Assembly: GCA_025934715.1 (NCBI GenBank)
Contig: JAICWR010000002.1
Span: 152-64,151, forward strand
DNA: 64,000 bases
From: Candidatus Saccharimonadota bacterium
GTDB lineage: Bacteria > Patescibacteriota > Saccharimonadia > Saccharimonadales > UBA10212
Direction: 5' to 3'
In this document: positions 2,189 through 60,976 of the stretch, one piece after another
Layout of the letters: the number at the start of each line of letters is the position of its first letter
Numbering within the stretch: the first letter of the stretch is position 1
Program-made: the position numbers and the translations under genes
Notes under the pieces: generated by a model
What the model was told of the DNA's origin: nothing
The model's input: only the letters and a program-made list of their open reading frames with translations
Database searches by the model: none

Positions 2189-2271
2189 GAAACAACCCTC
2201 GTTTAACACTTTTAGCTTATGGCAAAAATACTTAACAAGTCAAGTATTTTGGAGGGCAGGGGACAAATTAT

Positions 2272-5280: not shown

Positions 5281-5323
5281 CGACGATATGGGGTGAAAAC
5301 AGCTTAATTATACCAAAGGGGGG

Positions 5324-11005: not shown

Positions 11006-11443
11006 TTACTCGAACACCCAGGTTGTGGACGAGACGATCGTATTTTTGCCGTTTTTGGGGTTACGTTCCCTGATTTGAAGCAATTGTGAGCCCGGCGATC
11101 CTGTTGAGATATCACCGGTCACGGTATTGATACAGCCTTTGCTGTCTGCCAGGCCCGCTCCCACGGCCCACTGGCCGATTCCGGTATCCGCAATCAAAGT
11201 TTCATTCGCGCCGGGAGTGTAGCCGCAGCCGGTTATGGTAAGGTGTACCGTTGTGGCGGCTGGGGCTGGATTAGGAGATACTTGCAGGGTAGCCGACGAA
11301 TGAGTGGAATTGTTTTTTGGCGCCGCACTGGCTATAATCGCAAAAATTCCCACGCCAGCAAAAATAGCTACGAACACTATCACTTGCCAAAGCTGGAAGG
11401 ATTGTTTCCTTTTCAAAAATTTTGTTTGTGTTTTCTTTGCCAT
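11006..11443 (-). CDS. Small secreted hypothetical protein
   Basis: N-terminal basic segment and TM/signal (LWQVIVFVAIFAGVGIFAIIASA), then a 100-aa domain with two Cys. Confidence 0.45.
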   Translation of the reverse strand: MAKKTQTKFLKRKQSFQLWQVIVFVAIFAGVGIFAIIASAAPKNNSTHSSATLQVSPNPAPAATTVHLTITGCGYTPGANETLIADTGIGQWAVGAGLADSKGCINTVTGDISTGSPGSQLLQIRERNPKNGKNTIVSSTTWVFE

Positions 11444-11601
11444 ATTTTTATTTACCTTGTTAATTACTATTGGTCACTCTATATTTAACGGTCTTATGTT
11501 GTCAAGATTTCAATAAAAAACCTGGCTCTTTCAGTTGTGGACCCAGCGATCCGATTTATAAAGAAATGGTGGGTAAGATTATCAGGTGGAATGTGCTTTT
11601 A

Positions 11602-13258: not shown

Positions 13259-13933
13259 TTAGCGACGCTTGCGGGACACAACGTAGTGCCCAGCAGCGCC
13301 CAGGGAACTCACTCCGGTAAAGATACCCAGCACGTCACCCGCGCCGGTGTTCGGCAAAGTCTTCGTAGGTGTTGGGGTAGGTGTAGGTGTTGGAGTCGGT
13401 GTAGGAGTAGGAGTCGGGCAGCTAATCTTGGCTTTATAGTTCACGAACTCAGTCGTTGAACCATTAAGGCCGCCGATGTCTACGCCACTGGAAGTGATAG
13501 TATCGGGCAAAGTCTTGATGACATTACCTTTACCATCAAACAAAGTGGTTGTGCCGTTCTCGTAACTCACGGTCTGAGCAGAATCTATGTTTACAGTAGC
13601 GATTCCAGAAGTACCGGAAGTGCCACCGAGGTTGGTGGTAGCCGTCATTATAGAGGTATTAACGGTAGAGCTGCCACTGGGCAAGTTTACCTTAACCTTA
13701 ACATCGGTAAGACCACCAAACGAAATGTTGTGAAGCCGAATGCTGTACTCAACCTGTTCACAAGCGCTGGCGTTGGTTGACGGAGCATAACTACCGCCTT
13801 TAGTAACGTTCTTGACGTTATACACGATAGAACCGCCTTCAAGCTGGCCAGGGCTGTCGGCAATCGCCGGAGCGGCAATAGCAAACACAGGCAAAGCAGC
13901 CAAAACAATGGCTAATTTAGAAAATCGAATCAT
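13259..13933 (-). CDS. LPXTG cell-wall-anchored surface protein with a (Pro-Thr)9 linker
   Basis: Signal peptide (MIRFSKLAIVLAALPVFAIAAPAIA); C-terminal 'CPTPTPTPTPTPTPTPTKTLPNTGAGDVLGIFTGVSSLGAAGHYVVSRKRR' gives an LPNTG motif, hydrophobic span and basic tail. Confidence 0.8.
   Translation of the reverse strand: MIRFSKLAIVLAALPVFAIAAPAIADSPGQLEGGSIVYNVKNVTKGGSYAPSTNASACEQVEYSIRLHNISFGGLTDVKVKVNLPSGSSTVNTSIMTATTNLGGTSGTSGIATVNIDSAQTVSYENGTTTLFDGKGNVIKTLPDTITSSGVDIGGLNGSTTEFVNYKAKISCPTPTPTPTPTPTPTPTPTKTLPNTGAGDVLGIFTGVSSLGAAGHYVVSRKRR
13357..13420. repeat. Dinucleotide-codon tandem repeat encoding (PT)9
   Basis: ggtgtaggtgttggagtcggtgtaggagtaggagtcggg on the plus strand corresponds to a CCN-ACN repeat in the gene. 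Confidence 0.7.
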
Positions 13934-14015
13934 ATCAATTCTCCTTATCTAATCGAACTTAAATTACTTTACTTAACAAACTAGGTAGATACTGGACTTT
14001 AAATAGAGTGAAATC

Positions 14016-32373: not shown

Positions 32374-32391
32374 TAGTGCTAAGATTGGTTC

Positions 32392-32614
32392 ATGGCCAAG
32401 AAAACAAAAAGGAAGAAATGGTTCGTAGCGGTGCGCGGCAGTTACTTGCCTAATAGCCGTGCCGGCTGGCTGACCTATATTCCCTTCACCGCTTTCCTGT
32501 TAATAACCCTATACATCGGGTGGCACTACAGCCCAGACACCGGCTTAGCGATCTTATATATTTTCCCAAATTGGATTGCCGCCGCTGTGGTGATGACCTG
32601 GGTCGCCAAGCGCA

Positions 32615-32622: not shown

Positions 32623-33898
<1,276 letters not shown>

Positions 33899-44643: not shown

Positions 44644-44720
44644 CGGGGTGTGGCGCAGTTGGCTAGCGCGCCGCGTTTGGGACGCGGAGGCCGGAGGTTC
44701 AAGTCCTCTCACCCCGACCA
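44644..44720 (+). tRNA. tRNA-Pro (anticodon TGG)
   Basis: CGGGGTGTGGCGCAGTTGGCTAGCGCGCCGCGTTTGGGACGCGGAGGCCGGAGGTTCAAGTCCTCTCACCCCGACCA. Confidence 0.85.
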
Positions 44721-44750
44721 AAAAATACTTAACTTGTTAAGTATTTTATT
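44721..44750. terminator. AT-rich palindrome AAAAATACTTAAC-TTG-TTAAGTATTTT between convergent tRNA-Pro and rny; member of a recurring motif family
   Basis: 9-bp inverted repeat flanked by an A-run and a T-run; overlaps the rny stop codon. Confidence 0.5.
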
Positions 44751-46200
44751 TTGCGAACTCTACCGCCCTTGTTTCTCTTATGACGTTGACTTTGATTGTA
44801 CCGGGGTACTGCATCGTTGATTCAATTTTGTTGGCGATGTCGCGGGCCAGCCGGATGGCCGATAGGTCGTCGACTGACTTTGGCTGGACAAACACCCGGA
44901 CTTCGCGGCCGGCGCTGATGGCGTAGGCCTTCTCGATGCCATCAAAACCGAGCGCGGTGTTTTCCAAATCTTTCATGCGCTCGGCAAAGTTCTCGGCGCT
45001 GACATTGCGAGCGCCGGGCCGGGCTCCCGAGATAGCATCTACTACCCGCACAATCAGCCCCTCCACACTGGTCGAGTCCATATCGTCGTGGTGCTGCTCG
45101 GCAGCTGCGGCGACTTCCTCGGGGGCTCCATATTTGCGCAGCATTTCACCGCTGATGTGGTGGTGTTTACCTTCGACTTTATGGCTAAGCGCCTTACCCA
45201 TGTCATGCGTCAGGGCGGCATACTTGGCGGTTTTAACGTCGGCCCCCAGTTCCTCGGCTAGCACTCCGGCCAGCTGGGCCATTTCGACCGAATGTTTAAG
45301 TACGTTCTGGCCGTAGCTGGTGCGATACTTCAGTTCGCCCATCAGCTGCAGGATTTCCTTAGGTATGCCAACCAGCCCAACTTCGCGGGCGGCGTCTTCG
45401 CCAGCCCGGACGACGTCTTTTTGGACCTGTTTTTGGGCTTTTTCGACGATCTCTTCGATCCGGCCGGGGTGCACCCGCCCATCCTTAAGCAGCATCTCCA
45501 TAGTCTGGCGGGCAATCTCGCGCCGCACCGGGTCGAAACTGGACAGCACGATCATGCCGGGAGTTTCATCGACTAAAATATCGACGCCGGTGGCCCGCTG
45601 TAGCGCCTGGATGTTGCGGCCTTCTTTGCCGATGATACGGCCTTTCATTTCTTCGTCATCCAGTTTCACAGCCGTGACTGTGCGCTCGGCTGTCACTTCG
45701 CTGGCCATCCGTTCCATGGTTGTGGCCAAAATCACGGCTGCTTGCCCTTCGGCATCTTCTCTGGCTTCGTTTTGCAATTTGTTAACCAAACCAAGCAGGT
45801 CGTTTTTAATGTCGCGCTCAGTCATGGCCATCAGTTTCTCGGTGGCTTCAGCTTTTGTAAGCTTAGCGATTTTCTCCAGCTTTTCCTGTTGCTTGCCGCG
45901 TATCTCGCGGATTTCATTTTTAAGATCTTCGACCTCGCCTTCGCTTTTGCGAAGAACTTCTGTGCGCTTGTCTAGGTTGTCTAGCTTTTTATCTAGTGAT
46001 TCCTGGCGAGACAATAAGCGGTTTTCAATTTCTTTTAGTTCGCTTCTGCGTTTTTGCTCGTCTTTCTTAACTTCTTCGATCCGCTTTGCCGCGTCTTCCT
46101 CGGCTTTTTTAATTGCCTCAGCCGCGTCTTTTTTAGTCTGGACCAGTTCTTTTTTAATTTCGTCAATAACCTTACCGGTAAATAAATCCAGTAGTGCCAT
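44746..46200 (-). CDS. rny: Ribonuclease Y
   Basis: Coiled-coil N-terminus, KH domain (GKEGRNIQALQRATGVDI), HD domain (LKHSVEMAQLAGVLAEELG...LTHDMGKAL). Confidence 0.85.
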   Translation of the reverse strand: MALLDLFTGKVIDEIKKELVQTKKDAAEAIKKAEEDAAKRIEEVKKDEQKRRSELKEIENRLLSRQESLDKKLDNLDKRTEVLRKSEGEVEDLKNEIREIRGKQQEKLEKIAKLTKAEATEKLMAMTERDIKNDLLGLVNKLQNEAREDAEGQAAVILATTMERMASEVTAERTVTAVKLDDEEMKGRIIGKEGRNIQALQRATGVDILVDETPGMIVLSSFDPVRREIARQTMEMLLKDGRVHPGRIEEIVEKAQKQVQKDVVRAGEDAAREVGLVGIPKEILQLMGELKYRTSYGQNVLKHSVEMAQLAGVLAEELGADVKTAKYAALTHDMGKALSHKVEGKHHHISGEMLRKYGAPEEVAAAAEQHHDDMDSTSVEGLIVRVVDAISGARPGARNVSAENFAERMKDLENTALGFDGIEKAYAISAGREVRVFVQPKSVDDLSAIRLARDIANKIESTMQYPGTIKVNVIRETRAVEFAK

Positions 46201-46400: not shown

Positions 46401-46793
46401 TCACTTTTTAGGCTGAGTGGTACGGGGCGGCGCGCCATATTGCAGGGTCGCGATTTTATCATTCTTGCCGGCTTGTAAATCTTTTATGGATTTTTCCAGC
46501 CAGTTTTTGCCGCCGCGGGACACGATGGGAATAGCCTGCGAATAGGCCAGGGCATTCGCCACGCTCACGCCTATTCTCAGTCCGGTGAAACTGCCCGGGC
46601 CTTTAAAGACAGCCAGCCCGTGCAGGTCTTTATAGGAAATACTTGACTTGTTAAGTATTTCTTCGATTTTGCCGTTGAGGGTTTCGGCTAGCTTTAAGTG
46701 GGCCTGCCACTTTAACGCGTTTATTTTCTTTTTACCTTCATATACATATAGTTCAGCTTCAGGTTGGTCGGTGCGAATAGCCAGGACCATCAT
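46401..46793 (-). CDS. tsaB: tRNA threonylcarbamoyladenosine biosynthesis protein TsaB, short form
   Basis: 'LAIRTDQPEAELYVY', 'GPGSFTGLRIGVSVANALA'; only about 130 aa. Confidence 0.7.
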   Translation of the reverse strand: MMVLAIRTDQPEAELYVYEGKKKINALKWQAHLKLAETLNGKIEEILNKSSISYKDLHGLAVFKGPGSFTGLRIGVSVANALAYSQAIPIVSRGGKNWLEKSIKDLQAGKNDKIATLQYGAPPRTTQPKK

Positions 46794-47275: not shown

Positions 47276-48584
47276 GGCGGTACTCATATACGGCATATAG
47301 TAAGGCGACAGCCCCGACGCCGGCAAGCACCAGCGGATGCATTCGGACAGCACTTGGAGTTCCGCCGCCCGGACCAGTATTCGTAGCGGCCGCCAGTACG
47401 GAGCCTTTTTTAGTGGACGAGCCACTGCCAGACGGGGCGCCGGACTTATTAGCCGGCGTGCTGACGAGATTGGCTTTTCCGGGCGTGGGCGTAGTTGTCC
47501 ATTGCCAAAGCCCACCGGCGCTCACCCAGGCGTAGTCGTCTTTCGCTCCTGTGTATTCATCTGTCTTATTAAGTACGTTCCCGGCCGGATCTAGCAATTT
47601 GACCTGCCCGTCACTGTTGCTTAGGCTGAGGTTGGTGTCTGATGAATAAAAGGCCGTGAATTGTTTGGGCTCGATGGTAGTACCATCCGGAAAAGTATAT
47701 TTATGTATGGTCGTGGTCCCAACCTGCAGAATGAACCCGCTTAAATCGAAGGGCTTGGCGTTGGAGTTATAAAGCTCAATGAACTCATCATTGGCATCGG
47801 TCTTCGGTGAGGCCGGGTTGGGCACAACTTCAGAAATCTGCGGCGCTTTTAAATCGGAATCGTCGGCCGGGATTGAACTCAATGTAGCTGACGCGGTGTT
47901 AACCGTGTAAGGAATGGGGGCAGAACCTGGCGCCAGAGACCCGCCGCCCAACGACCCGGAGGTCTGAGAAGGGCTGCAGGGCGAGTTGCCGTTAAGCTGC
48001 TTGACGCTCTGCCAGCCACCGTCCCCTGGAATTTGTATAAGCGACAGTTTTGATGAGCCGCCCGGCGCCTGGCGCTGTAAAAACGAACTGGCGTCGGCGG
48101 GCAGGGCTTGCGCCCCGGGAACCAATTTCTTAGACCAGCCGACATAGTCATCCAGGACACTGACCACGTGCGGGCTGTCGCCAAGATAGTGGCTGACCTG
48201 CAAGAAGCCGGCGGTTGTTGACAGGCCTAGCGACACCGAATTAACAGTCATCTGGTAGCAAGCCTGGATAGCGCCGTCGTTGACCACTGCATAGCCGTGG
48301 GGCGACAGCTGGCCGGTCAGTTTTACCAGCTTACTGCTGGTGGCCGACGCCAAATCATAATTGTTGAAGTACTGCAGCTGGATATTATTCAGGTCAATAG
48401 TGCCAGCCGTGTTGTTATAAAGCGTGATGAACTGGCCGTCGCTGGAGGTCACCTTAACCTGAGCGATAACCAGCTCCGGGCCCACCGGCGCCGATTCAGC
48501 TAACTTTATGCTCTTCCACCACCAAAAGCCGGCCGTGAGAAGAAACAATAGCAGTACTACAAAATATTTTCTCATTTGTATCAA
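47211..48584 (-). CDS. Lamin-tail-domain (LTD) protein with signal peptide and C-terminal TM anchor
   Basis: Two LTD-like segments ('VIAQVKVTSSDGQFITLYNNTAGTIDLNNIQLQYF' and 'ISEVVPNPASP...DEFIELYNSNAKPFDLSGFILQ'); C-terminal TM 'LVLAGVGAVALLYAVY'. Confidence 0.6.
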   Translation of the reverse strand: MIQMRKYFVVLLLFLLTAGFWWWKSIKLAESAPVGPELVIAQVKVTSSDGQFITLYNNTAGTIDLNNIQLQYFNNYDLASATSSKLVKLTGQLSPHGYAVVNDGAIQACYQMTVNSVSLGLSTTAGFLQVSHYLGDSPHVVSVLDDYVGWSKKLVPGAQALPADASSFLQRQAPGGSSKLSLIQIPGDGGWQSVKQLNGNSPCSPSQTSGSLGGGSLAPGSAPIPYTVNTASATLSSIPADDSDLKAPQISEVVPNPASPKTDANDEFIELYNSNAKPFDLSGFILQVGTTTIHKYTFPDGTTIEPKQFTAFYSSDTNLSLSNSDGQVKLLDPAGNVLNKTDEYTGAKDDYAWVSAGGLWQWTTTPTPGKANLVSTPANKSGAPSGSGSSTKKGSVLAAATNTGPGGGTPSAVRMHPLVLAGVGAVALLYAVYEYRHDLGNFFYKLRRNREARRTAG

Positions 48585-49217
48585 TTATATCCCCTTGAAA
48601 CCTCAGAGAAAGTGCCTGTGCTAAAAACCGCTGGTGATATAAATCGTAGCAGCTCCAGCACTCTGAAGTTATACTTAGGCTTAATTATGCTGATGCTTAG
48701 TAAAGGCCTGCTTAACCAGCCGGTCATAAGCTTGAGGTCGGGCGGCCAGATCGCCACGGCGCTCGAGCCGGTCATCAATCCCCATAATCTTAAGGTCCTG
48801 GGCTGGTGGTGCGAAGGGCCCGGCGGCCGGCGGGAAGTGCTGCTGGTGGATGATGTCCGTCAGACGATGCCCAATGGCCTGGCCGTGAATGACGAATCAG
48901 ATTTAAGCTTGCCCGAAGATTTGGTGCGGCATGGCGAAATCCTAAACACCCGTTTTCAGCTACTGGAAAAACCAGTCAAAACCAAGCGCCAAAGGCTGGG
49001 CAAAGTCAGCGACTATAGTTATAACGAGGGGATGTTTGTCCAAAAGCTATATGTAGCGCGGCCGCTACACAAGGTGTTCACGTCTGACGACACTTTAATT
49101 ATCGACCGTACCCAGATCTTGGAGGTCACCGACCATTACATCCTGGTGCGCGACACTGAGATAAAGGCTACGGCCGAGGAAGTTGCCAGAGCCGGCGCCG
49201 CTGTGCCCTCCGGATAA
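48576..49217 (+). CDS. PRC-barrel domain protein
   Basis: Two PRC-like segments (LLNQPVISLRSGGQIATALEPVINP..., LLEKPVKTKRQRLGKVSDYSYNEGMFVQKLYV); the start may be internal. Confidence 0.45.
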   Translation: MYQLYPLETSEKVPVLKTAGDINRSSSSTLKLYLGLIMLMLSKGLLNQPVISLRSGGQIATALEPVINPHNLKVLGWWCEGPGGRREVLLVDDVRQTMPNGLAVNDESDLSLPEDLVRHGEILNTRFQLLEKPVKTKRQRLGKVSDYSYNEGMFVQKLYVARPLHKVFTSDDTLIIDRTQILEVTDHYILVRDTEIKATAEEVARAGAAVPSG

Positions 49218-49231
49218 AATCACTTAACTTG

Positions 49232-49843
49232 TTAGGTATCTTCGCGGTCTGATAAAAGCTCCTGTTTAACCAGGTTCCAGCTGAATCCTTGACCCGTTAA
49301 GTATTTGGCGAGCTTGTTAGGGTCGTTTTTATAGCGGCTAAGTTTGGCCTTCTTCTCTATCACTGATTTTAGCCGCTGTTCTTCCCCGCCGGCATTTTGC
49401 GACATTGTTTCGTCGGCCAGCTCCCGCCCGATGCCTTTTTTGAACAATTCGGCCCGAATAGCCCGGTCGCTCTTGCCGCGGCGGGCCTGCAGTTCTGTGA
49501 ACCACTCCGCGAATTTAGCGTTATCTAAATAACCCTTTTCAGTCATCTCTTTAACCAGGCCGTCGATCTGCTCCGGTTCGATTTTTTTGCGGAATAAGTA
49601 ATCGCGGAATTCGCGCTCCGAATGCGGCCGGTTCATCAGCCATTCGAGCGCCCGGGCTCTAAGCTTGCCATCGGCACTGATTTTTTTAAATTGTTTGACT
49701 TCAGGCCCATCCAGTTCATCATCATTCTTGAGCTTATGCTTCACCAACTCGTCCAGGCTTAATGAGAACTCGTACCTACCATCAATGAAGATGCTGACCC
49801 GCTCCGGGTTCTTAACTTGCTGCTTGATAGCGGTTATTTTCAT
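49232..49843 (-). CDS. recX: Regulatory protein RecX
   Basis: RecX three-repeat helical pattern (ALEWLMNRPHSEREFRDYLFRKKI...); located immediately downstream of recA. Confidence 0.7.
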   Translation of the reverse strand: MKITAIKQQVKNPERVSIFIDGRYEFSLSLDELVKHKLKNDDELDGPEVKQFKKISADGKLRARALEWLMNRPHSEREFRDYLFRKKIEPEQIDGLVKEMTEKGYLDNAKFAEWFTELQARRGKSDRAIRAELFKKGIGRELADETMSQNAGGEEQRLKSVIEKKAKLSRYKNDPNKLAKYLTGQGFSWNLVKQELLSDREDT

Positions 49844-51402: not shown

Positions 51403-53253
51403 TTGCGTTTATTTCTGTATTCTTTTCTCAATTCATTTATACTTATGCTTATGCGTATTAGCGACGCTCTAGTGATTACATTGCTAAAGGAGAGTCGTAA
51501 AGTTACCGATGAGCAGATCCATGGTCTGCTTGAACAGGAAAAAACCGAAAAAAAACCACTGCAGGACATCGTCATCAAAAACAATGTCCTGCCCGAAGCC
51601 GACCTGACTAAACTTTACGCCGCCAAGATCGACGTTCCGTTCGTTGAGCTGGTGCCCCGAAACCTGCGCAAAGAAGTGTTCGGGTTGATCCCCGAGCATA
51701 TCGCCCGGCAATATAATGCTGTTTTGTTCGATGTCAAACCCGACGGCACGCGGTACCTGGCAATGGAAGACCCGGATGACATCCAGGCCTTCAGTTTCCT
51801 GCAAAAACAGTTGGGCTCCAATATAAGGCTGTTCATAGCCACCCGGTCCAATATCCTCTCGGCCCTGGACCAGTACCGGACAAACATCGGCAGCGAACTG
51901 ACCCAAGTGATTGCCGATAATGAAACCGGCGCACAGGCGCCCGAAGAAGAGGTGTCTGAAGCAGAAGTCGCCGAAGACAGCCCGGTGGCCAAAACCGTCA
52001 ACCTGATAATCGAATACGCTATTAAGCAAGGCGCTAGTGACATACACATCGAGCCGCATGAAGATTTCGTGTCAATCCGCTACCGCATCGATGGCCAGCT
52101 GCGCGAGACTAACCGGCTGCCTAAGAAAATCATCTCCGCGCTGGTCAGCCGCATCAAAATCCTGTCCAACTTGAAAATCGATGAACGCCGGGCGCCGCAA
52201 GACGGACGGTTTAAGGTGGCGTTCGGCAGCGGTGAGTACGCCCTGCGCGTCAGCACCCTGCCGATTGTCGACGGTGAAAAAGTCGTGATGCGTATCTTGG
52301 ATGAATCAACCCGCGCCTCATCACTTAAGGAGCTGGGGTTTTGGGGAAAGAACCTTGAATCGCTCGAGAAAGCTCTGACCAGCCCCCATGGAATGATACT
52401 GTTCACCGGCCCGACCGGTTCCGGAAAGAGCACGAGCCTATTCAGCATCTTAAGCCGGCTGAACCAGCCGTCAGTGAACATCAGCACCGTGGAAGACCCG
52501 GTGGAGTACAAGATACCAGGCGTGAACCAGGTGCAGGTCAACCCGCAAGCCGGCATGACTTTTGCCAACGGGCTGCGGGCTCTGTTGCGCCAGGACCCGA
52601 ATATCATCATGGTTGGCGAGATCCGCGACAGTGAAACCGCCAATCTGGCTATCCAGGCCGCCTTGACCGGGCACCTGGTTTTTTCAACCCTTCACACCAA
52701 CAATGCCTCCACCGCGCTGCCCCGCTTGCTGGACATGGGTATCGAACCGTTCTTGATCGCCAGCACCATGCGGGCGGTCATCGCCCAGCGCCTGGTGCGC
52801 CGACTTGTCCCTGAAAACACCGAAATCTATCACCCGGATGAAACCACCGTCAAGCGGATCCGCACAGCCTTCGGCCTTAACGATTCAGCGTCGATGGACC
52901 GCATCCATAAGCTGGAACAGCAGTTCGTCCAATCCGATTTGGATATGGTGCTTAACAGCTCCAAGCCCATAGCCCACGCCGAACCCTCTAGCAACGGACA
53001 GACCATCAGTAAGCTGTGGCGGCTGAAAGGCCAAAGCGGTGCGACTTCCTTCCGCGGCCGGCTGGGAATATATGAAGTTTTGCCGATCAGCCTGCCTATC
53101 CAGAAACTTATCATCGGCGGCGCGCCGAGCGAGGAAATCCAGGTCGAAGCCATCAAAGAAGGTATGATATCCATGCAGACCGATGGTTTGATCAAAGCCT
53201 TGCAGGGCCAGACTACCCTTGAAGAAATAATGAGAGTGACCAGCGAGCGGTAA
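51403..53253 (+). CDS. pilB: Type IV pilus assembly ATPase PilB (GspE family)
   Basis: N1/N2 domains; 'MILFTGPTGSGKSTSL' Walker A; 'VGEIRDSETANLAIQAALTGHLVFSTLHTNNA'. Confidence 0.9.
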   Translation: MRLFLYSFLNSFILMLMRISDALVITLLKESRKVTDEQIHGLLEQEKTEKKPLQDIVIKNNVLPEADLTKLYAAKIDVPFVELVPRNLRKEVFGLIPEHIARQYNAVLFDVKPDGTRYLAMEDPDDIQAFSFLQKQLGSNIRLFIATRSNILSALDQYRTNIGSELTQVIADNETGAQAPEEEVSEAEVAEDSPVAKTVNLIIEYAIKQGASDIHIEPHEDFVSIRYRIDGQLRETNRLPKKIISALVSRIKILSNLKIDERRAPQDGRFKVAFGSGEYALRVSTLPIVDGEKVVMRILDESTRASSLKELGFWGKNLESLEKALTSPHGMILFTGPTGSGKSTSLFSILSRLNQPSVNISTVEDPVEYKIPGVNQVQVNPQAGMTFANGLRALLRQDPNIIMVGEIRDSETANLAIQAALTGHLVFSTLHTNNASTALPRLLDMGIEPFLIASTMRAVIAQRLVRRLVPENTEIYHPDETTVKRIRTAFGLNDSASMDRIHKLEQQFVQSDLDMVLNSSKPIAHAEPSSNGQTISKLWRLKGQSGATSFRGRLGIYEVLPISLPIQKLIIGGAPSEEIQVEAIKEGMISMQTDGLIKALQGQTTLEEIMRVTSER

Positions 53254-53254
53254 A

Positions 53255-54475
53255 ATGGCAGTTTATTCTTACAGCGCTTTAAACAATCAGGGGCAGCATG
53301 TCAGCGGCACAATCACTGCCACCAACCGCGATGAAGCCGTCAAGAGCCTGCGCCAGCAGGGTAGCCACCCGCTGACGGTCAAAGAGGCCAAGCAGGCGGC
53401 CTTTAACTTGTCTCTTGGCAGTCGCAAGGTTAAAAGTAAGGATCTGGTGATTTTCACGCGCGAACTTTCAACCATGGTCAGCGCCGGAGTGGCTTTGCCC
53501 AAGATTTTGGACACCTTGGCCGGACAGGCCGAAAACAAATACTTTAAGGAGGTCATCACTGGCATCAACCACGACGTGGAAAGCGGCGCGCCGCTGGCCG
53601 ATGCCATGGCTAAATATCCAAATGTCTTCAGCGACGTTTACATCAACATGGTCCGGGCCGGCGAATCCGGCGGTATCTTAGATGAGATTTTAAAGCGGCT
53701 GGCCCGCCAGGAAGAAAAAGACGCCGCCATTAAAGCCAAGGTCAAAAGCGCCACGACGTATCCGATGGTTCTGCTGGCGATCACAGTCATCGCGTTCTTT
53801 ATCCTGACGGTTTTCGTGGTGCCCAAAATCGGGGCGCTGGTGCTGAATCTGGGCGGCCCGCACGCCAAACTACCGCCCCAAACCGTCGCCATGCTGGCTG
53901 TCAGCAAATTCATCCGCCACCAATGGTATTTGGTGTTGCTGATAATCGTCGGCGGGCCGCTATCTGTGAACCGCTGGCGCAAGACGCCTAAAGGCAAGCC
54001 CAGATTTGACGCGCTAATGCTAAGGGTGCCGATTTTCAAGACGATTGTCAGTAAAGTGGCCATCGCCCGCTTTGCCAGGACTTTCGCTTCACTGATGGGC
54101 GCCGGCGTCACCGTTTTGGAATCCCTCCAGGTCACCTCGCACGCCATCGGTAATTTTGTGATTGAGCAGGAACTGCTCAAAGCCTCCAGCGAAGTCCGGG
54201 AGGGCCGGCAGCTATCCCAGGCTTTGGCTAAAAGCCAACTGTTCCCGCCGATTGTCAGCCAGATGCTGGCAGTCGGTGAAGAAACCGGCAAGACCGATGA
54301 AGTGTTGGCTAAAGTCGCTGACTTCTATGAGGAAGAGGTTGATTCGGTCATCGATAGCTTGAGCTCCATTTTGGAGCCGATCATGATAGTCATAATGGGC
54401 AGCATGGTCGGCCTGATCGCCATAAGCGTCATTGGCCCGATCACCAGCTTGAACCAAACCTTGCAGCAGCAATAG
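53255..54475 (+). CDS. pilC: Type IV pilus platform protein PilC (GspF family)
   Basis: Two GspF repeats with three TM helices. Confidence 0.85.
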   Translation: MAVYSYSALNNQGQHVSGTITATNRDEAVKSLRQQGSHPLTVKEAKQAAFNLSLGSRKVKSKDLVIFTRELSTMVSAGVALPKILDTLAGQAENKYFKEVITGINHDVESGAPLADAMAKYPNVFSDVYINMVRAGESGGILDEILKRLARQEEKDAAIKAKVKSATTYPMVLLAITVIAFFILTVFVVPKIGALVLNLGGPHAKLPPQTVAMLAVSKFIRHQWYLVLLIIVGGPLSVNRWRKTPKGKPRFDALMLRVPIFKTIVSKVAIARFARTFASLMGAGVTVLESLQVTSHAIGNFVIEQELLKASSEVREGRQLSQALAKSQLFPPIVSQMLAVGEETGKTDEVLAKVADFYEEEVDSVIDSLSSILEPIMIVIMGSMVGLIAISVIGPITSLNQTLQQQ

Positions 54476-54495
54476 CCTGGCTGTTAAGCCATCTT

Positions 54496-54530
54496 AAACT
54501 TGACAGATAAGCGGGGTTTGTCGATAATCA
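54496..54530 (+). promoter_or_regulatory. Near-consensus sigma70 promoter for the major pilin gene
   Basis: TTGACA-17 bp-GATAAT (cTTGACAgataagcggggtttgtcGATAATcat); AAGGAGGG ribosome-binding site before the ATG at 54618. Confidence 0.6.
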
Positions 54531-54617
54531 TAAGCATTAAGCAAAAAACCTAGAATAAGAAGGTAATAAAAAGCTTAACTTCACGTAAGACAAGACCTTA
54601 AAGGAGGGTGGCATCTC

Positions 54618-55085
54618 ATGAAGTTAAAAACAATTAGAAACAGTAAGGGTTTCACGATCGTTGAACTCCTTATCGTAATCATCATCATCGGCATCCTGGC
54701 CGCCCTGGTGCTTAACAGCTTCCGCGGGGTGCAGGAACGGGCCCGTGATACCGAAAGGCAAACAGATATCAATGCCCAGCAATCACAGCTGGAAGTTTAC
54801 TTCACCGACAACGGCGAATATCCAACGTTGGCGAACGTGCAGGATGATGGCTGGATCAGCGGCAACTTGAAAGGGGCCGACCTGAACGCCTGGCGGGCAC
54901 CGAACCAAACCACAAACAGTGAAAACGGCACCGCAACCCCCACCAAGGACCAGTACGGTTACGTCGTGACCAACGACAGCGGCACTTCCTGTGACAACAC
55001 CACAGGCAACGAATGTGCCCACTATAAGCTGTACTACATGACCGAAAACAATCCCACAGTCAAAGAAAAAGACAGCCTGAACTAA
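54618..55085 (+). CDS. pilA: Type IV major pilin (prepilin-type N-terminal methylation domain)
   Basis: 'KGFTIVELLIVIIIIGILAALV' class III signal; C-terminal Cys pair. Confidence 0.85.
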   Translation: MKLKTIRNSKGFTIVELLIVIIIIGILAALVLNSFRGVQERARDTERQTDINAQQSQLEVYFTDNGEYPTLANVQDDGWISGNLKGADLNAWRAPNQTTNSENGTATPTKDQYGYVVTNDSGTSCDNTTGNECAHYKLYYMTENNPTVKEKDSLN

Positions 55086-55174
55086 GCCGGCCTGACGGCT
55101 AAGAACTCCCCTGCCAGTGCTCGCCAGGGGAGTTCTTATTAGGCCGGACCTGAGTTACTATTAACATAAGCCTT

Positions 55175-55567
55175 ATGAAAACAAACCGCCAGAGTGGGTT
55201 CACCGTCGTCGAACTGGTTGTGACTATAGTGGCCGCCGGCGTCATCATACCGGCCGTAGCCCTGGCGCTAGCGAATGTAATCGGCATTAATCACCGCGCC
55301 CGTGACCTAACTTTGGCCAGCAGCGTGGCCCAAACCGAAACAGAGACATTGCGTAGTGTCGGTTATAACAGCCTAAGCACCGGTACGACCAGTTTCACTG
55401 GCCAGCTGCCGGCAGCCATGGGCAGCCCTAAAAGCGCCAGTTACACCATCAGCGCTCCAGAAACCGGCGTGAAGCAGATCGATATCACCATTTCTTATAG
55501 CGACTACGGCGCTTCCCATACCTTCACTTACCGGTCCTATATCAGTGAGTTAGGGGTCGGCCAGTGA
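55175..55567 (+). CDS. Type IV minor pilin / pseudopilin
   Basis: 'SGFTVVELVVTIVAAGVII' prepilin motif. Confidence 0.75.
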   Translation: MKTNRQSGFTVVELVVTIVAAGVIIPAVALALANVIGINHRARDLTLASSVAQTETETLRSVGYNSLSTGTTSFTGQLPAAMGSPKSASYTISAPETGVKQIDITISYSDYGASHTFTYRSYISELGVGQ

Positions 55568-56229
55568 GTGTCAGGCGCAGCCAACTGGGCTTCACCATCA
55601 CCGAGCTGGTCATTGCGATCACGGTGGCCGGTATTCTGGCCGGCGCCATTTTCGTAGCGACCTTCGATTATTACGCCGACGTCAACCGCTCCCAGGTGGC
55701 CACAGACGAAGCTTTGTCGTCGCAATCCATCTTAAACCAGATGACCAGTGATATCCGACTGGCGGACGCCATATCCAGCACCAACACTATCACCGACCCC
55801 AATGCACCGGCTGGCGGCTGGGTGACCAGTAACCCCAGCAATGTGATCATCATCGAAAGCCCGGCGACAGATTCTAGCCGTAATATCATCTACAATCCTG
55901 ACACCGGGTTCCCATACCGCAACGAGTTCATCTACTTTGTCAGCGGCAGCAGTATGTACAAGCGGGTTCTGGCTAACACATCGGCGCCCGGCAACACCGC
56001 CGTCACCACCTGTCCGCAATCCCTGTCCAGCCCAACCTGCCCGCCCGACGCCCTCTTCAGCGACCATGTCAATAATCTAAGTTTCACGTTCTACGACTCA
56101 TCCGATAATAGCACCTCGGATGCCACCAAGGCCCGTTCTGTGCTGCTCGACGTGAACCTGGGACAGAAGGTGTATGGCAGAGACGTGACATTGAGCAACC
56201 AAGCCAGAATCACACTGAGGAACCAATGA
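55564..56229 (+). CDS. Type IV minor pilin (PilW/GspJ-like)
   Basis: 'LGFTITELVIAITVAGILAGAIF' prepilin motif. Confidence 0.75.
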   Translation: MSVRRSQLGFTITELVIAITVAGILAGAIFVATFDYYADVNRSQVATDEALSSQSILNQMTSDIRLADAISSTNTITDPNAPAGGWVTSNPSNVIIIESPATDSSRNIIYNPDTGFPYRNEFIYFVSGSSMYKRVLANTSAPGNTAVTTCPQSLSSPTCPPDALFSDHVNNLSFTFYDSSDNSTSDATKARSVLLDVNLGQKVYGRDVTLSNQARITLRNQ

Positions 56230-57656
56230 TGAAACTGGCTAACTCAAATTATTTTAGGATAAGAGCCAAGCCGCAGGACGGTTTTATCTTACCCGTGCTG
56301 CTGGTTACCGGTGTGATGCTGGTCTTGATGATCATCGCTATCACCAGTGAATCGGTGACCAACCAGACGGCTGCCGAACACGATTACTACGCCACGGAGG
56401 CCCAGCTGGCGGCCGACGCTGGGCTCGATGAAGCCATGCACGAGATGAACACCCAGACCGGTTGGACCGGGACCGGCGGCGATGTGACATTGCTAAATGA
56501 TGCCGCCCGCAACCTCAAAACCACCTACAACGTGGTGGTTAATGACGGCGGCGATAGTATCGATAAGACCTTGGTGGTGACCGCCAAAACCTATTTCCCG
56601 GCCAGCGCCACCAGCCCTAAAGTCACCCGCAAGTACGCCATGGATATCCAAGCAGTGACAACTGGGACCGGCGCTGCTTCGGTCGTCACCGGTGTCGGAG
56701 GTCTAGTCATGAACGGCAATTCTAAAGTATCAGGCGGCGACGTGATCGTGGACGGAACCATCACTATGAGCAACAATTCCCAAATCGGATTAAGCACAAA
56801 TCCCGTAAACGTCCGGGTAGCTGACCAAGCATGCCCCAAGCCGGCCGATAGTACCTACCCCCAGGTTTGCTCCGGCGGCGGCCAGCCAATCACGATGGGC
56901 ACAACCAGTTTTATATACGGAAATGTCCAGGCTAAAAACCAGACGACCGGCACTAACATGTTGAACCCTGGGCTGGTGGCTTGTTCGGGAACCAGCTGCG
57001 ACCCCGTGCCGATGCCATCTTTTGACCGTACCGGCTTCAAAAACACTGTGAACGGGTCCGGACAGACCATGACTGGTGCCGCTGCCTCAAATTGCCCCAA
57101 CGGTGGTACCATCAGCTGGCCGGCTAATGTTAAAATCACCGGCAACGTCAGCATCCAAAACAAATGCACCATCAAAATAAACGGCAATGTCTGGGTTACT
57201 GGTTCCGTTGCCATCCAAAATAACGCCAACTTCGTTGTCCAAGATTCGGTTGGCACTACCTATCCTGACGTGGTTGTCGATGGCCAAAGCGGCTTTATTA
57301 TTGGCAACAAGGGCTCGATAACCCCCAACAGCCAAGGTACAAGCATGGAGGTGCTGACTTTTTGGAGCAGTGGAGCATGTTCGCCAGATTGTAGCAGTGT
57401 TACAGGCACCAGTCTTTATAGTAGCCAGCAGGCTACTACCATTAATCTCAGTAATACCGGCTCGGCGCCAGGCGCGATTTTATATGCTTATTGGTCCGAG
57501 GTGCAGCTGAGCAATAATGGATCGCTTGGGGCGGTTTCCGGACAAACGGTTTCTCTGGGCAACAATGCCGTAATAACGTTTGGGACGGCCGTTCCTGGTA
57601 GCGACAATCAAATCACCACCTGGGTCAAGCGTGGTTACATGCGGCAGTATAACTAG
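56226..57656 (+). CDS. PilX-like pilus-associated protein (N-terminal TM, large Thr/Gly/Asn-rich extracellular domain)
   Basis: PilX_N-type N-terminus (GFILPVLLVTGVMLVLMIIAI) without a canonical prepilin cleavage motif; parallel-beta-helix-like repeats. Confidence 0.55.
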   Translation: MMKLANSNYFRIRAKPQDGFILPVLLVTGVMLVLMIIAITSESVTNQTAAEHDYYATEAQLAADAGLDEAMHEMNTQTGWTGTGGDVTLLNDAARNLKTTYNVVVNDGGDSIDKTLVVTAKTYFPASATSPKVTRKYAMDIQAVTTGTGAASVVTGVGGLVMNGNSKVSGGDVIVDGTITMSNNSQIGLSTNPVNVRVADQACPKPADSTYPQVCSGGGQPITMGTTSFIYGNVQAKNQTTGTNMLNPGLVACSGTSCDPVPMPSFDRTGFKNTVNGSGQTMTGAAASNCPNGGTISWPANVKITGNVSIQNKCTIKINGNVWVTGSVAIQNNANFVVQDSVGTTYPDVVVDGQSGFIIGNKGSITPNSQGTSMEVLTFWSSGACSPDCSSVTGTSLYSSQQATTINLSNTGSAPGAILYAYWSEVQLSNNGSLGAVSGQTVSLGNNAVITFGTAVPGSDNQITTWVKRGYMRQYN

Positions 57657-57731
57657 GGTCAAAACACCTTATTTGTGATATACTCAGCCTGAAACGCAAC
57701 GGTAACTAAGAGTGGGCCAAAATAAAGACCA

Positions 57732-58808
57732 ATGAACTTGAACGAGATTTTCTACCACGATAAGCCGTTGTTTGGTTTGGATATCGGCCACTCCAGCATT
57801 AAAGCGATGCAGGTGGATAAAGTGGGCGGCAATACTACGGTCATATCGGGCTACAGCCTCAGCAGCTTTGCGCCCGGGGCCGTGCGTAACGGTGAAATAA
57901 TCAAGCCCGAAGTCCTGGCGGAAGCCATCCACAATCTATTTGAAAAAAGTTTGGTTGGCGCAATTAACAGCCGGCGGGTGGCCTGCGCTTTGCCCACTTC
58001 CCACACCTTCAGCCGGCCGATGAAACTGCCGCCGATGGACCAGCACGACATAGTCGAGGCCACCCAGCTGGAGGCCAGCCAGTATATTCCCGTGCCGATT
58101 GACAGTCTATATTTGGATTACGAAGTCACCAGCCGCAGCCAACAGGGGCTTGAAGTGCTGCTGGTCGCCACCCCCCGCAAAATCGTCGACAGCTATATGA
58201 ACCTTCTCAAATCCTTAAAGCTCGAACCCGTGGTCTTTGAACCCAGTATCAACGCGGCCTCTCGGTTGCTACAGATGGCCGGTAAGGCCGCCGCCGAACC
58301 GTCAATTTTGGTTGATATCGGCTCGGTGACCACCGATTTAGCCGTGTTTGACAGAACGCTACTGGTGTCGAGCACTATTAATGCCGGAGGCGACACTATC
58401 ACGGACTTGATCGCCAGAAACCTGCACATGTCTGAAAAACAGGCCTCGGAGCTGAAAAACCAATACGGCATCGCCTTCAGCGAGAAGCAACAGAGGATCG
58501 TCGACGCCATCAAGTCCCAGCTTGACAACCTGGTGCGCGAGATCCAAAAATCCATCCGTTATCATAGCGAACGGGCCGCCCAATCCGGCAAGCACATCAC
58601 AAAGGTTATAACGCTCGGTGGCGGCGCCATGATGCCCGGCCTCAACCATTATTTGGCGATCGAGCTCAGAATGCCCTGTGAAAGCTTTGACCCCTGGCAG
58701 TTGGTGTCGTTTGGCAACCTGGCGCCGCCGGCCGAAGCCGACCGTTCAATGTATATCACCGTGGCTGGCGAATCCATCCTCGACCCTTTGGAGGTGACCC
58801 ATGATTAA
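57732..58808 (+). CDS. pilM: Type IV pilus assembly protein PilM (actin-like ATPase)
   Basis: 'LFGLDIGHSSIKAMQV', 'LVDIGSVTTDLAVF'. Confidence 0.85.
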   Translation: MNLNEIFYHDKPLFGLDIGHSSIKAMQVDKVGGNTTVISGYSLSSFAPGAVRNGEIIKPEVLAEAIHNLFEKSLVGAINSRRVACALPTSHTFSRPMKLPPMDQHDIVEATQLEASQYIPVPIDSLYLDYEVTSRSQQGLEVLLVATPRKIVDSYMNLLKSLKLEPVVFEPSINAASRLLQMAGKAAAEPSILVDIGSVTTDLAVFDRTLLVSSTINAGGDTITDLIARNLHMSEKQASELKNQYGIAFSEKQQRIVDAIKSQLDNLVREIQKSIRYHSERAAQSGKHITKVITLGGGAMMPGLNHYLAIELRMPCESFDPWQLVSFGNLAPPAEADRSMYITVAGESILDPLEVTHD

Positions 58809-59397
58809 TCTACTGCCGCCCCAACATGCCGCCGCCATAAGATACGGCCGCCAAAACTCCAAGCTGGTGACTTGGCTGGCTGGAGTTGCCGGAGCAATTA
58901 TCGTCCTAGTGTTAATCTTGGCCGGCGGCTGGTTTTACATCAACCAGCAGTCCAAAGAATTAAGGCATAACCTGGATTCAACCAACCAGCAGCTAGCGGC
59001 TCAAAACCTGAGCAAGGTCGAGGCGGACGCCAAGGAACTAACTGGTGATATCAACGTGATCGACAAGGTCCTCGGCCAGGAAATCCACTTTTCAGACCTC
59101 ATCCAGTCGCTTGGAAGTTATATGCCGCCCGGAACAGTGTTAAGCCAGCTGACGCTAAGCAACGAGGTCAGAGGTGGTCTGGACCTGAGCGTCAACGCCA
59201 AAGATTACGCCAGCGCCGCCGAAGTCGCCGTTAACCTTAACGACCCTAAAGATAACCTGTTTTCCAAGGTCGACATCGTTAACATCAACTGCGGCAACGC
59301 CGCCGACAAACAGTACCCCTGCAGCACCCAATTAAGAGTATTGTTTTCCAAGCCCGCCCAGACAAAATTCCTTAGCGCGGGGGGCGGTAAAACATGA
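58801..59397 (+). CDS. pilN: Type IV pilus assembly protein PilN
   Basis: 'MINLLPPQHAAAIRYGRQN' plus a single TM. Confidence 0.75.
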   Translation: MINLLPPQHAAAIRYGRQNSKLVTWLAGVAGAIIVLVLILAGGWFYINQQSKELRHNLDSTNQQLAAQNLSKVEADAKELTGDINVIDKVLGQEIHFSDLIQSLGSYMPPGTVLSQLTLSNEVRGGLDLSVNAKDYASAAEVAVNLNDPKDNLFSKVDIVNINCGNAADKQYPCSTQLRVLFSKPAQTKFLSAGGGKT

Positions 59398-60044
59398 AGC
59401 CGTTGAAAATCGAATTCAATAGTAAGATATTCCGGCTGATTTTAAGCGTGCTGCTAGTGCTGCTGGGCATCGGATTTTTCGCCACCGCTTTCCACGGAAT
59501 CTCTTTGCTAGAGAAGAAGAGCGGCGAGATGGTGCAGCTGAAGTCGCAAAGCCAGTCGGCCCAAACCCAGCTGAACAACCTGCAAATAGCCAAGAAAGAA
59601 GTCAAAAAATATTCATACTTCAAGGCGGTCGCAAACACTGTCATACCTAGCGACAAGGACCAGGCGGAGGCTGTTTTGGAAATCTACCAGCTGGCCAGCC
59701 AGTCCGGCATCGCCATCCAGAGCGTCACCTTTCCCGCCAGCACCCTAGGCTCTTCGATTGCCGAAAGCGCCACCAGTTCAGCGGCCAGCAAGGACGTCCT
59801 GACCCAGGCCAAGCCGGTGCCAGGCATCCCCGGGCTATACAGCCTGCAGCTGACCATTACGCCCCAGGTAGGCAACACCGTGCCGGCGAGCCAGCAAGTG
59901 ACCTACGATAAGATGCTTAAGTTCTTCAGGCTTATCGAGAACAACCGGCACACGGCCCAAATCACCCAAGTCCAAATTGAACCGGCCCAGGGTAATTTAG
60001 GGCTATCCTTCGTTTTGACAATTAATATATTCATCAAGCCATGA
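59394..60044 (+). CDS. pilO: Type IV pilus assembly protein PilO
   Basis: N-terminal TM then a coiled coil; operon position after pilN with a 4-bp overlap. Confidence 0.65.
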   Translation: MKPLKIEFNSKIFRLILSVLLVLLGIGFFATAFHGISLLEKKSGEMVQLKSQSQSAQTQLNNLQIAKKEVKKYSYFKAVANTVIPSDKDQAEAVLEIYQLASQSGIAIQSVTFPASTLGSSIAESATSSAASKDVLTQAKPVPGIPGLYSLQLTITPQVGNTVPASQQVTYDKMLKFFRLIENNRHTAQITQVQIEPAQGNLGLSFVLTINIFIKP

Positions 60045-60346
60045 ACAAGGGACTAAACTTAAAATCAATCGACTTCAAGGGACTGGGCACCAAATATGCT
60101 AAGCAGTATGGTAAGCATATGGCTTTCGCCGCCGTCATTATCGTGCTGCTGGTATACGTACTGGTAGTGGCCAAGATTAGCGCCCTGTCTAAAGCCGAGC
60201 CCAGTTCCAGCCAGACGGTCGACACCAACAGCCTGGTGCCGCGGGTCAATCAGCAGGCGATCAACCGGATCCAGGCACTGGAGAACAACAGCCCACAGAT
60301 TCATAGCCTGTTCGAACAAGCCCGCAATAACCCGTTCCAAGAATAA
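60041..60346 (+). CDS. Small membrane protein, pilus-operon-associated (PilP-like position)
   Basis: 101 aa, single TM; 4-bp overlap with pilO. Confidence 0.4.
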   Translation: MNKGLNLKSIDFKGLGTKYAKQYGKHMAFAAVIIVLLVYVLVVAKISALSKAEPSSSQTVDTNSLVPRVNQQAINRIQALENNSPQIHSLFEQARNNPFQE

Positions 60347-60358
60347 ATACTTAACATG

Positions 60359-60976
60359 TTAAGTATTTTGCTTTTTCTCGTTTTCTTCCTGGATGCTCTT
60401 GGCGTAGGCCTGGCGGGCCTCTATTATCCGATCAGCTAACCCTGTCGGGTTAGGGCACAGCGTGAAGATGAAGTTATCCTCGGTGCCGGCGGTCTGGACG
60501 GTTAAGGTCCCGTAATTGAAGAGGCTGGCCAAAAAGCCCCGCTGCTCCTCGCTGACATCTTCAACGTTTGACATGCTCAGCCGCGAAACCTTTTTGATAA
60601 ATAATGTTTTTTGCAGGATCTGCACTAAACTCCTATTTGTCACCAGCAAGCGGCTCTGGCGGTATATATAGGTCGCTGTGAATAAGATAAGCCCGAGCAA
60701 AACCGCCGCGAGGATAATAATAGCGCTGACCGAAGCGGAAACGGAGACACCCGAAGAGTCGAAACTATCCGGCGACATGGCGATCACCAGAGCGACAATT
60801 GCGGCGATGGCTAAAAATGCGACCAGATAAATACCGAGTAACCCAATGACCGAACGGTGCACGACGGTCAATACGCACTCGCCGGGCTCCAGCATGTCCG
60901 CTTCGCGGTCTTTAGATATGCCAGCCAAAGGTGGCGGCGCGGCCGGCGGCTTTTGGGCTTTTTCGTCAGGCTCCAT
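60359..60976 (-). CDS. Bacterial PH-domain (YdbS/YdbT-like, DUF304) membrane protein
   Basis: Two TM helices followed by a bPH_2-like segment (FNYGTLTVQTAGTEDNFIFTLCPNPTGLADRI). Confidence 0.55.
   Translation of the reverse strand: MEPDEKAQKPPAAPPPLAGISKDREADMLEPGECVLTVVHRSVIGLLGIYLVAFLAIAAIVALVIAMSPDSFDSSGVSVSASVSAIIILAAVLLGLILFTATYIYRQSRLLVTNRSLVQILQKTLFIKKVSRLSMSNVEDVSEEQRGFLASLFNYGTLTVQTAGTEDNFIFTLCPNPTGLADRIIEARQAYAKSIQEENEKKQNT

Follow-up and report, generated by a model that had tools for sequence, protein, structure and literature searches.

In the present study, we analyzed a 64,000-nucleotide stretch of DNA (hereafter, the window) from a Candidatus Saccharimonadota bacterium (contig JAICWR010000002.1), in which an AT-rich palindrome, A-TACTTAAC-NN-GTTAAGTA-T, is present in seven copies with at most two mismatches. 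This palindrome is probably the operator for a homodimer of a MarR protein that occurs throughout the Saccharibacteria and is encoded on the minus strand of the window (marR); the protein would bind at its own promoter and at the other sites. The site is symmetric, 20 bp long, and common to the class, it overlaps the conserved marR promoter, and the DNA-reading residues of the protein are conserved to the same degree. An earlier examination of this DNA (the sequence-only reading) had offered three explanations for the palindrome, i.e., a terminator consensus, a binding site of a global DNA-binding protein, and a DNA-uptake signal. The second is the best supported by our comparison, with the marR product as the candidate protein.

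The palindrome at the marR promoter

MarR was the only Pfam family enriched among the 42 genes with a 5' end adjoining a site (nine genes; at most two for any other family). In eight species, marR orthologues, with proteins down to 22-31% identical, have the palindrome 24-55 nucleotides (nt) upstream of the start codon. Since these first loci had been selected for the motif, we then collected marR orthologues without regard to it. In clade 1 (29 metagenome loci), the palindrome was found upstream of marR in 25/25 loci that include 110 nt or more of DNA before the gene, and in clade 2 in all six contigs reached through protein look-ups; thus, in the two clades together, 31/31 orthologues have it. 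The gene order pcrA/uvrD - DUF348/G5 protein - ksgA - marR is kept in both clades (window 3278-7468 and 1784-2209; loci L117, L121, L124, and L148-L153), and the palindrome stays with marR where 0.5-2.3 kb of other genes separate marR from ksgA, its usual upstream neighbour. The PcrA/UvrD helicase of one of these relatives (L151, 4589-7825) is a protein of 1078 amino acids (aa) with an intein (Pfam Intein_splicing). Downstream of marR in the window lies the transfer-messenger RNA (tmRNA; 1179-1577), with a canonical terminator at 1173-1154; a conserved association of marR with tmRNA was rejected, as this synteny is limited to the window and L071 and is not seen in ten other loci.

The position of the palindrome within the marR promoter is also conserved. 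In 28 of the 29 distinct marR promoters (window included), the -35 element lies in the left half-site (TTGACN in 26, TTAACN in 2) and is followed after 16-18 nt by a TAnnnT -10 element. The ATG is mostly located only 6-7 nt beyond the latter, and therefore the marR message appears to be leaderless. Of 28 distinct marR operators, 26 have G at position 6 of the left arm (marR strand), so that TTAAC becomes TTGAC. Across the 28, little or no variation is seen at positions 3-8 and 11-16. As the palindrome overlaps both the -35 element and the spacer, a bound protein would cover both. Such a layout is typical of repressors that regulate their own gene through an operator. The sequence-only reading had placed the window copy (2226-2250) at the 3' side of a small gene (2272-2550), which is correct; the same copy also overlaps the marR promoter. 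A leaderless look is shared by many other genes, in which a TAnnnT -10 element, often TGnTAnnnT, is located just 5-7 nt before the ATG (for example, window 2207-2246, minus strand, and downstream of the sites in L115, L116, L029, L038, L063, and L069).

The window protein scores 34.8 bits against Pfam MarR_2 (cut-off 27), and its sequence matches in the PDB are all of the MarR/MexR type. The AlphaFold2 model (predicted local distance difference test score, pLDDT, 90.5) has the canonical fold, with its helices, a recognition helix at residues 60-72, a beta wing at 76-92, and a long helix at the C-terminus. Of its Foldseek matches in the PDB, the first 50 are all members of the MarR family, several of them DNA complexes. 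The family has hundreds to more than 1000 members, and all named ones are from Saccharibacteria; one database protein (P0121) is 100% identical to that of the window. Although identity between the two clades is only 26-36%, Q58, T59, E60, S64, R65, and Q66 of the recognition helix (QTE..SRQ) and R86, T93, K95, and G96 of the wing are invariant in 40 homologues of both clades. The invariance of these putative DNA-reading residues parallels that of the operator. No ligand was suggested by the sequence of the window MarR.

Structure and statistics of the palindrome

At up to three mismatches, TACTTAAC-NN-GTTAAGTA has ten matches in the window (three exact over the 16-position core, two with one mismatch, two with two, and three with three). 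The expectation from 100 dinucleotide-preserving shuffles of the window is 0.10 +/- 0.30, and none of the 100 reached ten; the recurrence noticed by the sequence-only reading is thus real. All of the copies that it listed were found, give or take a few bases, including one at 15968 that is, as it stated, a half-site only, whereas a further two-mismatch copy (49286-49303) had been missed. Of the two spacer lengths that it gave, 2 bp is fixed in the window, and 3 bp was found in one three-mismatch match, which is the chance level. The 8-mer half-site occurs 12 times in the window (1.24 expected). Nine of these lie within palindromes, and the three isolated ones, against the same expectation, are not clearly enriched; therefore, the unit is the whole palindrome.

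When the window copies were aligned with 40 nt of flanking sequence, only about 24 bp were conserved (consensus AAATACTTAACTTGTTAAGTATTT), with no longer repeat around the core and no shared flanks. Symmetry between the two 8-bp arms is perfect, with 10 bp from centre to centre. Over 141 sites, the central 2 bp are variable yet A/T-rich (TT/AA 76, AT 28, AC/GT 20, TA 8, CG 0). TT versus AA shows no bias relative to the direction of transcription (9 versus 8). An A before the core and a T after it are found in more than 95% of the sites, and the same is observed in the marR operators that were not chosen for the motif. The G+C content of the window is about 51%, so that the AT-rich motif is no by-product of composition. 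In an Rfam search of the window, tRNAs and tmRNA were the only matches, and no family was found at any copy of the palindrome. We also considered an RNA-level wobble, as the A-to-G variants in the window all keep G.U pairing on the strand with the C-TT-G loop. This idea was dropped because the recurrent G at position 6 is accounted for by the -35 element of marR (TTGAC) and because TT and AA are unbiased.

The motif has consequences for coding. TAA is present in two of the three frames on each strand (four of six frames), and the sole TAA-free frame per strand, xTA-CTT-AAC-NNG-TTA-AGT-Axx, reads (I)LNxLS(I). This agrees with the peptide ILNK(L)S that the sequence-only reading had translated from the coding copies.

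Distribution among Saccharibacteria

The palindrome is a class-wide feature and nothing peculiar to the window. In a collection of species-representative genomes, the exact 20-mer ATACTTAACNNGTTAAGTAT was found at at least 116 loci from at least 67 species-level assemblies, and about 60 of the assemblies listed are labelled Saccharibacteria, Saccharimonadales, or Patescibacteria. Likewise, the best relatives of the window GlyA (up to 93% identity) bear the names Candidatus Saccharibacteria or Saccharimonadales. In a contig labelled Verrucomicrobiia (L073), the motif occurs together with Saccharibacteria-like genes, and this contig is probably mis-binned, because these are 78% identical to the window RecA; two contigs binned as Babeliales also carry the palindrome. 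In a 776-kb contig (JBEKOJ010000001.1), exact copies are spread from 8 kb to 672 kb, and thus the sites are not clustered in one chromosomal region. The density in the window is one per 9 kb, compared with about one per 30 kb in relatives collected without regard to the motif. In a literature search, we found no paper on this motif or on an uptake sequence or regulon of Saccharibacteria.

Two metagenome-assembled genomes of Negativicutes/Bacillota have the identical 18-mer in front of an operon for a major facilitator superfamily (MFS) transporter and a MarR protein. Their MarR is only 26% identical to that of the window, and they pair such a palindrome with a MarR protein once again. Carriage of the palindrome by phages was rejected: the 18-mer was found only in two homologous viral contigs of IMG/VR, unrelated to Saccharibacteria, between divergent cro-like XRE and GIY-YIG-like genes (L146, 5874-5891; L147, 420-437), where it is probably an unrelated operator that shares the sequence by chance.

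Comparison with known MarR systems

AdcR and ZitR, zinc repressors of the MarR superfamily, bind TTAACYRGTTAA, and their operator overlaps the -35 or -10 element of their own operon (PMC6372160). The half-site of these streptococcal and lactococcal repressors (TTAAC/GTTAA) and the 2-bp spacer are identical to those of the palindrome described here, the recognition-helix pattern (V/I-S/T-R/K) is similar, and the operator overlaps a -35 or -10 element of the regulator's own operon in both cases. The AdcR/ZitR operator is bound by a MarR-type homodimer, as is predicted for ours. However, the present site is longer (TAC...GTA plus A/T flanks), and its centre is pyrimidine-purine (TA) in only 8/141 sites, with TT/AA and AT being dominant. 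It is present in tens of copies, mostly off promoters, and no zinc-uptake genes lie beside the sites. The possibility that the window protein is AdcR itself is ruled out by its score on the NCBIfam model AdcR_fam_Zn_TF (16.7-19.2 bits; cut-off 175) and by the zinc-ligand alignment: H42, which we take from structure 3TGN to be a zinc ligand of AdcR, aligns to Arg, and the His cluster/His-rich helix is absent. AdcR was also absent from the PDB sequence matches of the window protein at E-values up to 1.

The classical regulators MarR, MexR, and MepR have the same fold and a palindromic operator over the regulator's own promoter, and the MFS transporter gene directly downstream of marR in clade 2 is a further likeness. 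They differ in having one to few operators, in contrast to roughly 10-100 per genome of about 1 Mb, as extrapolated here. Furthermore, enrichment of the present sites is seen at the 3' ends of genes and within housekeeping genes, and in the clade of the window the transporter partner is not adjacent.

Copies in the window

The coordinates of the copies and of the marR promoter are collected in Table 1. The sequence-only reading held that the copies lie mostly between convergent gene ends, which is not the case for the window: only three of the seven are strictly so placed. Two others, the glyA and internal recX copies, are near gene ends at convergent junctions (54-73 nt inside the 3' ends), one is in the middle of a gene (tsaB), and one is at the marR promoter. 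Some of the copies overlap stop codons. The stop codon of rny (44746-44748, minus) is within the T-run flank of the palindrome at 44726-44743 (sequence of 44720-44752, AAAAAATACTTAACTTGTTAAGTATTTTATTTT), and those of recX (49232-49234) and of the minus-strand gene 60359-60976 fall inside the respective palindromes. A role as terminator of tRNA genes was rejected, as besides the copy at 44726 just one more site (in L108) directly follows a tRNA.

Table 1. Positions of the palindrome copies and of the marR gene and promoter in the 64-kb window
Feature	Position	Strand	Remarks
marR, MarR-family winged-helix regulator	1784-2209	minus	141 aa from GTG; NCBI: 134 aa from ATG at 2188
marR GTG start	2209	minus	
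marR -10 TAAGCT	2219-2214	minus	18-nt spacer after -35
marR -35 TTGACT	2243-2238	minus	G variant of palindrome arm
marR operator	2229-2246	minus	One mismatch; minus strand reads TACTTGACTTGTTAAGTA; 20 nt upstream of marR start
Weak copy	11449-11466		Three mismatches; centre 15 nt before gene 11006-11443
Weak copy	13970-13987		Three mismatches; centre 46 nt upstream of start of gene 13259-13933 (minus)
Weak copy	25407		Three mismatches
glyA copy	32671-32688		Exact; in C-terminal helix of glyA (KILNKLSN), 56 nt before stop, beside convergent murB
tRNA-Pro/rny copy	44726-44743		Exact; begins 5 nt after tRNA-Pro(tgg) (44644-44720, plus)
tsaB copy	46640-46657		One mismatch (TACTTGAC...); in frame, mid-gene in tsaB (46401-46793, minus), encodes EILNKSS
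recX junction copy	49221-49238		Two mismatches; between plus-strand gene 48576-49217 and recX
recX internal copy	49286-49303		Two mismatches; 3' end of recX, 65 bp from 49221 copy, paired site
Pilus-operon end copy	60348-60365		Exact; between last pilus gene (stop 60344-60346) and minus-strand gene 60359-60976
Half-sites only	15968 and 30533		

Some of the window copies have counterparts in relatives. The tsaB copy recurs at an identical position in tsaB of L034, L051, and L058, the internal recX copy has an orthologous counterpart in L051, and the copy at 60348 has one in L107. The weak copies at 13970-13987 and 11449-11466 may be weak promoter-proximal operators; the 46-nt spacing of the former belongs to a class seen among the promoter-adjoining sites of relatives. 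As separate observations, TsaB is about 130 aa long in the window and in 12/12 aligned Saccharibacteria orthologues, corresponding to approximately the N-terminal half of the usual protein, and the convergent murB-glyA spacer (32374-32614) is unusually long (240 nt) for the tightly packed window, with nothing found there by Rfam.

Location of the sites relative to genes

For location statistics, we used 145 sites (the window plus the at least 116 loci) with naive calling of open reading frames (ORFs). The density of sites was 2.7/kb in convergent spacers, 0.9/kb in tandem spacers, 0.36/kb in divergent spacers, and 0.08/kb in coding DNA. The motif is typically centred 2-12 nt from a stop codon, and the built-in TAA often ends one or both genes. 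At convergent junctions, some sites are paired at a distance of 65-68 bp (window 49221/49286; L061 954/1022; L070 3788/3856), with one copy at the junction and the other within the gene's 3' end (recX, glyA); binding to such pairs may be cooperative.

About one-fifth of the sites lie directly against the -35 region of the following promoter, which is often leaderless. This is indicated by a modest excess of -10 elements 21-25 nt after the motif, and the distance from the motif centre to the ATG peaks at 43-46 nt. At the non-marR copies, no excess of -10 elements was found 17-18 nt from the half-site, and the idea that the embedded -35 sequence is in use there was rejected. Besides marR, the gene for a Zincin_1 protein (PF06262) is a second recurrent promoter-proximal target, with the palindrome at or within 18 nt of the start codon in three species (L153 15003-15020; L002 3338; L032 5308).

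Copies within ORFs accounted for 64/145 sites, and 51 of these are more than 120 nt from the stop codon. They recur at corresponding positions in orthologues, the host proteins being RecX (10), valyl-tRNA synthetase (ValRS; 5), ApbE (4), RluA-type pseudouridine synthases (4), serine hydroxymethyltransferase (3-4), TsaB (3), GatB, Dus, and UvrC. Of 120 GlyA homologues, 81 contain the peptide LNxLS. Protein alignments of RecX and TsaB showed no insertion or deletion between sequences with and without the site (e.g., EILEAQS to EILNKLS); therefore, the coding copies arose in place by substitution. In addition, a copy with one or two mismatches (TACTTAACAAGTTAATTA or ...TCA) is located about 330-345 nt into the gene for a DEAD-box helicase, at the same position in three clade-2 relatives (L149 17507, L151 14759, L153 11411).

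Points against the proposed operator and alternative explanations

Several points weigh against the interpretation of the palindrome as a MarR operator. The assignment of the protein to the site is drawn from comparative genomics, the at least 116 loci were chosen for exact motif matches and their genes called naively, and the figure of 10-100 sites per genome is an extrapolation. Most of the copies lie away from promoters, and the order of site densities (convergent, tandem, divergent, coding) is the reverse of that of an ordinary regulon. In clade 2, the MFS transporter gene directly after marR is what is found with an ordinary local MarR regulator, and suggests an ancestral role of that kind. 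The conserved mid-gene copies (valS, gatB, recX) do not fit an efficient roadblock. Furthermore, 20/141 sites are stretched palindromes, longer by at least 6 bp (2.3 expected), and the flank positions +/-2 and +/-3 covary at about 6 standard deviations above shuffles. A dimer operator does not need such covariation, which could reflect a hairpin function or the 'perfecting' of quasi-palindromes by template switching. Template-switch correction of quasi-palindromes is an established mutational mechanism, and it can extend flanks without selection.

One alternative is that the palindrome is the operator of a different DNA-binding protein and that marR is merely the most conserved member of its regulon. 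All the evidence for a dimer site on double-stranded DNA applies equally to such a protein, and the genome-wide distribution of the sites is atypical of MarR regulators. However, MarR is the only DNA-binding family enriched beside the sites, and it is the promoter of marR itself that the operator overlaps in every one of the 31 orthologues. The invariance of the operator is matched by that of the recognition helix, and MarR-superfamily proteins are known to bind TTAAC-N2-GTTAA. The occurrence of the same 18-mer ahead of another MarR operon in Negativicutes adds to these arguments, and we regard a different protein as improbable.

A similarly low probability is given to a sequence-conserved bidirectional intrinsic terminator, in which an RNA hairpin (A-run, AU-rich stem, U-run) would stop the polymerase in both directions at gene ends, with the core conserved by an RNA-level preference or an RNA-binding factor. 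The terminator consensus proposed by the sequence-only reading does find weak support in the clustering of the sites at the ends of transcription units, where they overlap stop codons; most of the intergenic copies are just past stops. The core is flanked by A/T runs, and the palindrome is the sole hairpin at several junctions. The flank covariation and the extended stems of 15-20% of the sites, which reach down to -21 kcal/mol, also point in this direction. However, the stems are weak, with one G-C pair (-3.5 to -11.3 kcal/mol for the five best window copies on the plus strand; over about 140 sites, the longest perfect palindrome has a median of -5.6 kcal/mol). Within the stem, the T-run is paired with the A-run, and no T-run follows the extended stems. 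In tandem contexts, the A/T flanks are of the same strength on either side and show no asymmetry relative to transcription. This genome of about 50% G+C uses normal G+C-rich terminators, such as the one after tmRNA at 1173-1154. Furthermore, about 40% of the copies are in genes, where the conserved mid-gene ones would be harmful, and the C and G beside NN are invariant though they are unable to pair over a 2-nt loop. The class-wide fixation of 16 stem bases and the constant link to the marR promoter are left unexplained by a terminator.

A DNA uptake sequence, amassed by uptake bias in a competent, piliated organism and best tolerated in terminators, is very unlikely. Natural competence of Saccharibacteria has been documented (PMC10633639), and the window contains a type IV pilus operon (51403-60346). 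As with the DNA uptake sequences of Neisseria and the uptake signal sequences of Pasteurellaceae, the motif is a clade-specific short sequence that is inverted at gene ends, and its coding copies arose by point substitution in tolerant positions. Known uptake sequences occur at about one per kb, and the density here is 10-30 times lower. Moreover, the unit is always the full palindrome with a fixed 2-bp spacing, the isolated half-sites not being clearly enriched (3 versus 1.24 expected), and no dialects are seen across the whole class. Uptake bias also leaves unexplained the promoter architecture of marR and the 31/31 association of the motif with this transcription-factor gene, and the transformation work on these organisms makes no mention of an uptake sequence (PMC10633639). 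The uptake signal of the sequence-only reading is therefore not supported. Finally, a mobile palindrome of the repetitive extragenic palindrome or miniature inverted-repeat transposable element type, spread by a transposase, would fit short palindromes in many copies at gene ends and the turnover of site positions between related species, but is hardly credible, as only about 24 bp without shared flanks are conserved, the core is identical across at least 67 species-level assemblies rather than genome-specific, the coding copies in RecX and TsaB are no insertions relative to site-free orthologues, and many copies are orthologous and position-conserved.

Proposed mechanism and possible roles of the dispersed copies

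If the palindrome is the MarR operator, the dimer would bind it at the marR promoter and shut this promoter off, i.e., negative autoregulation. The variant at the marR promoter (TACTTGAC...), which overlaps the -35 element and the spacer, would be slightly weakened, and copies elsewhere with the perfect consensus would hold MarR more tightly than this G6 variant. Autoregulation would then keep MarR at a level that fills the other sites. The non-promoter copies would be further MarR sites, usually of perfect consensus, placed where a bound protein would not interfere with promoters, i.e., at transcription-unit ends, just upstream of the next -35 element, or in the single open frame within housekeeping genes. 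A dimer bound there might limit read-through and antisense transcription in a genome with hardly any intergenic space, and the hairpins of a few extended copies might add a weak terminator effect.

As to what the non-promoter copies do, a boundary or roadblock at the ends of transcription units may be suggested tentatively, because the copies concentrate at convergent and tandem junctions, about one-fifth abut the next promoter, and some junctions are paired. An architectural or anchoring role is rather unlikely overall, although an architectural or titration role would fit the mid-gene copies better than a roadblock. The chromosome-organizing sites of ParB (parS), Noc (Noc-binding sites, NBS), SlmA (SlmA-binding sites, SBS), and MatP (matS) are similar in being palindromes of 13-16 bp in tens of copies, located in both coding and non-coding DNA and conserved over large clades. 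They differ from the present sites in that the candidate cognate protein here is of the MarR type and the sites are unclustered. We know of no chromosome-organizing role for a MarR protein. The enrichment at convergent junctions could also in part be a matter of tolerance, because TAA in four of six frames and the avoidance of promoters leave few places for the motif in a genome that is about 90% coding.

A broader and more doubtful possibility is that MarR was recruited from a local transporter regulator to a genome-wide, sequence-specific boundary factor, the level of which is set by the weaker copy at the marR promoter. The perfect palindromes would then hold the dimer as a block to read-through and antisense transcription or as an anchor of the chromosome, and some of them would double as stop codons. 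If this is true, the protein would be a bacterial counterpart of mTERF or Reb1 in termination or insulation, in ultra-small genomes with scarce intergenic DNA.

An autoregulated MarR operator is a known kind of system. What look new are the class-wide invariance of the operator, in a phylum that has essentially not been studied, its scattering over tens of non-promoter sites, and the fact that it serves both as stop codon and as in-frame peptide. As practical consequences, the motif may serve as a marker in assigning contigs to Saccharibacteria, and genetic constructs would be affected by it, since the palindrome brings with it a promoter-like half-site as well as TAA on both strands. Next to nothing is known of how genes are regulated in Saccharibacteria or, more widely, in the candidate phyla radiation. 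The present analysis provides a candidate pair of regulator and operator with class-wide conservation, and these organisms can now be cultivated and transformed (PMC10633639). Should the non-promoter copies have a function, they would show how a genome that is 90% coding marks the ends of its transcription units, or organizes its DNA, with a repurposed repressor.

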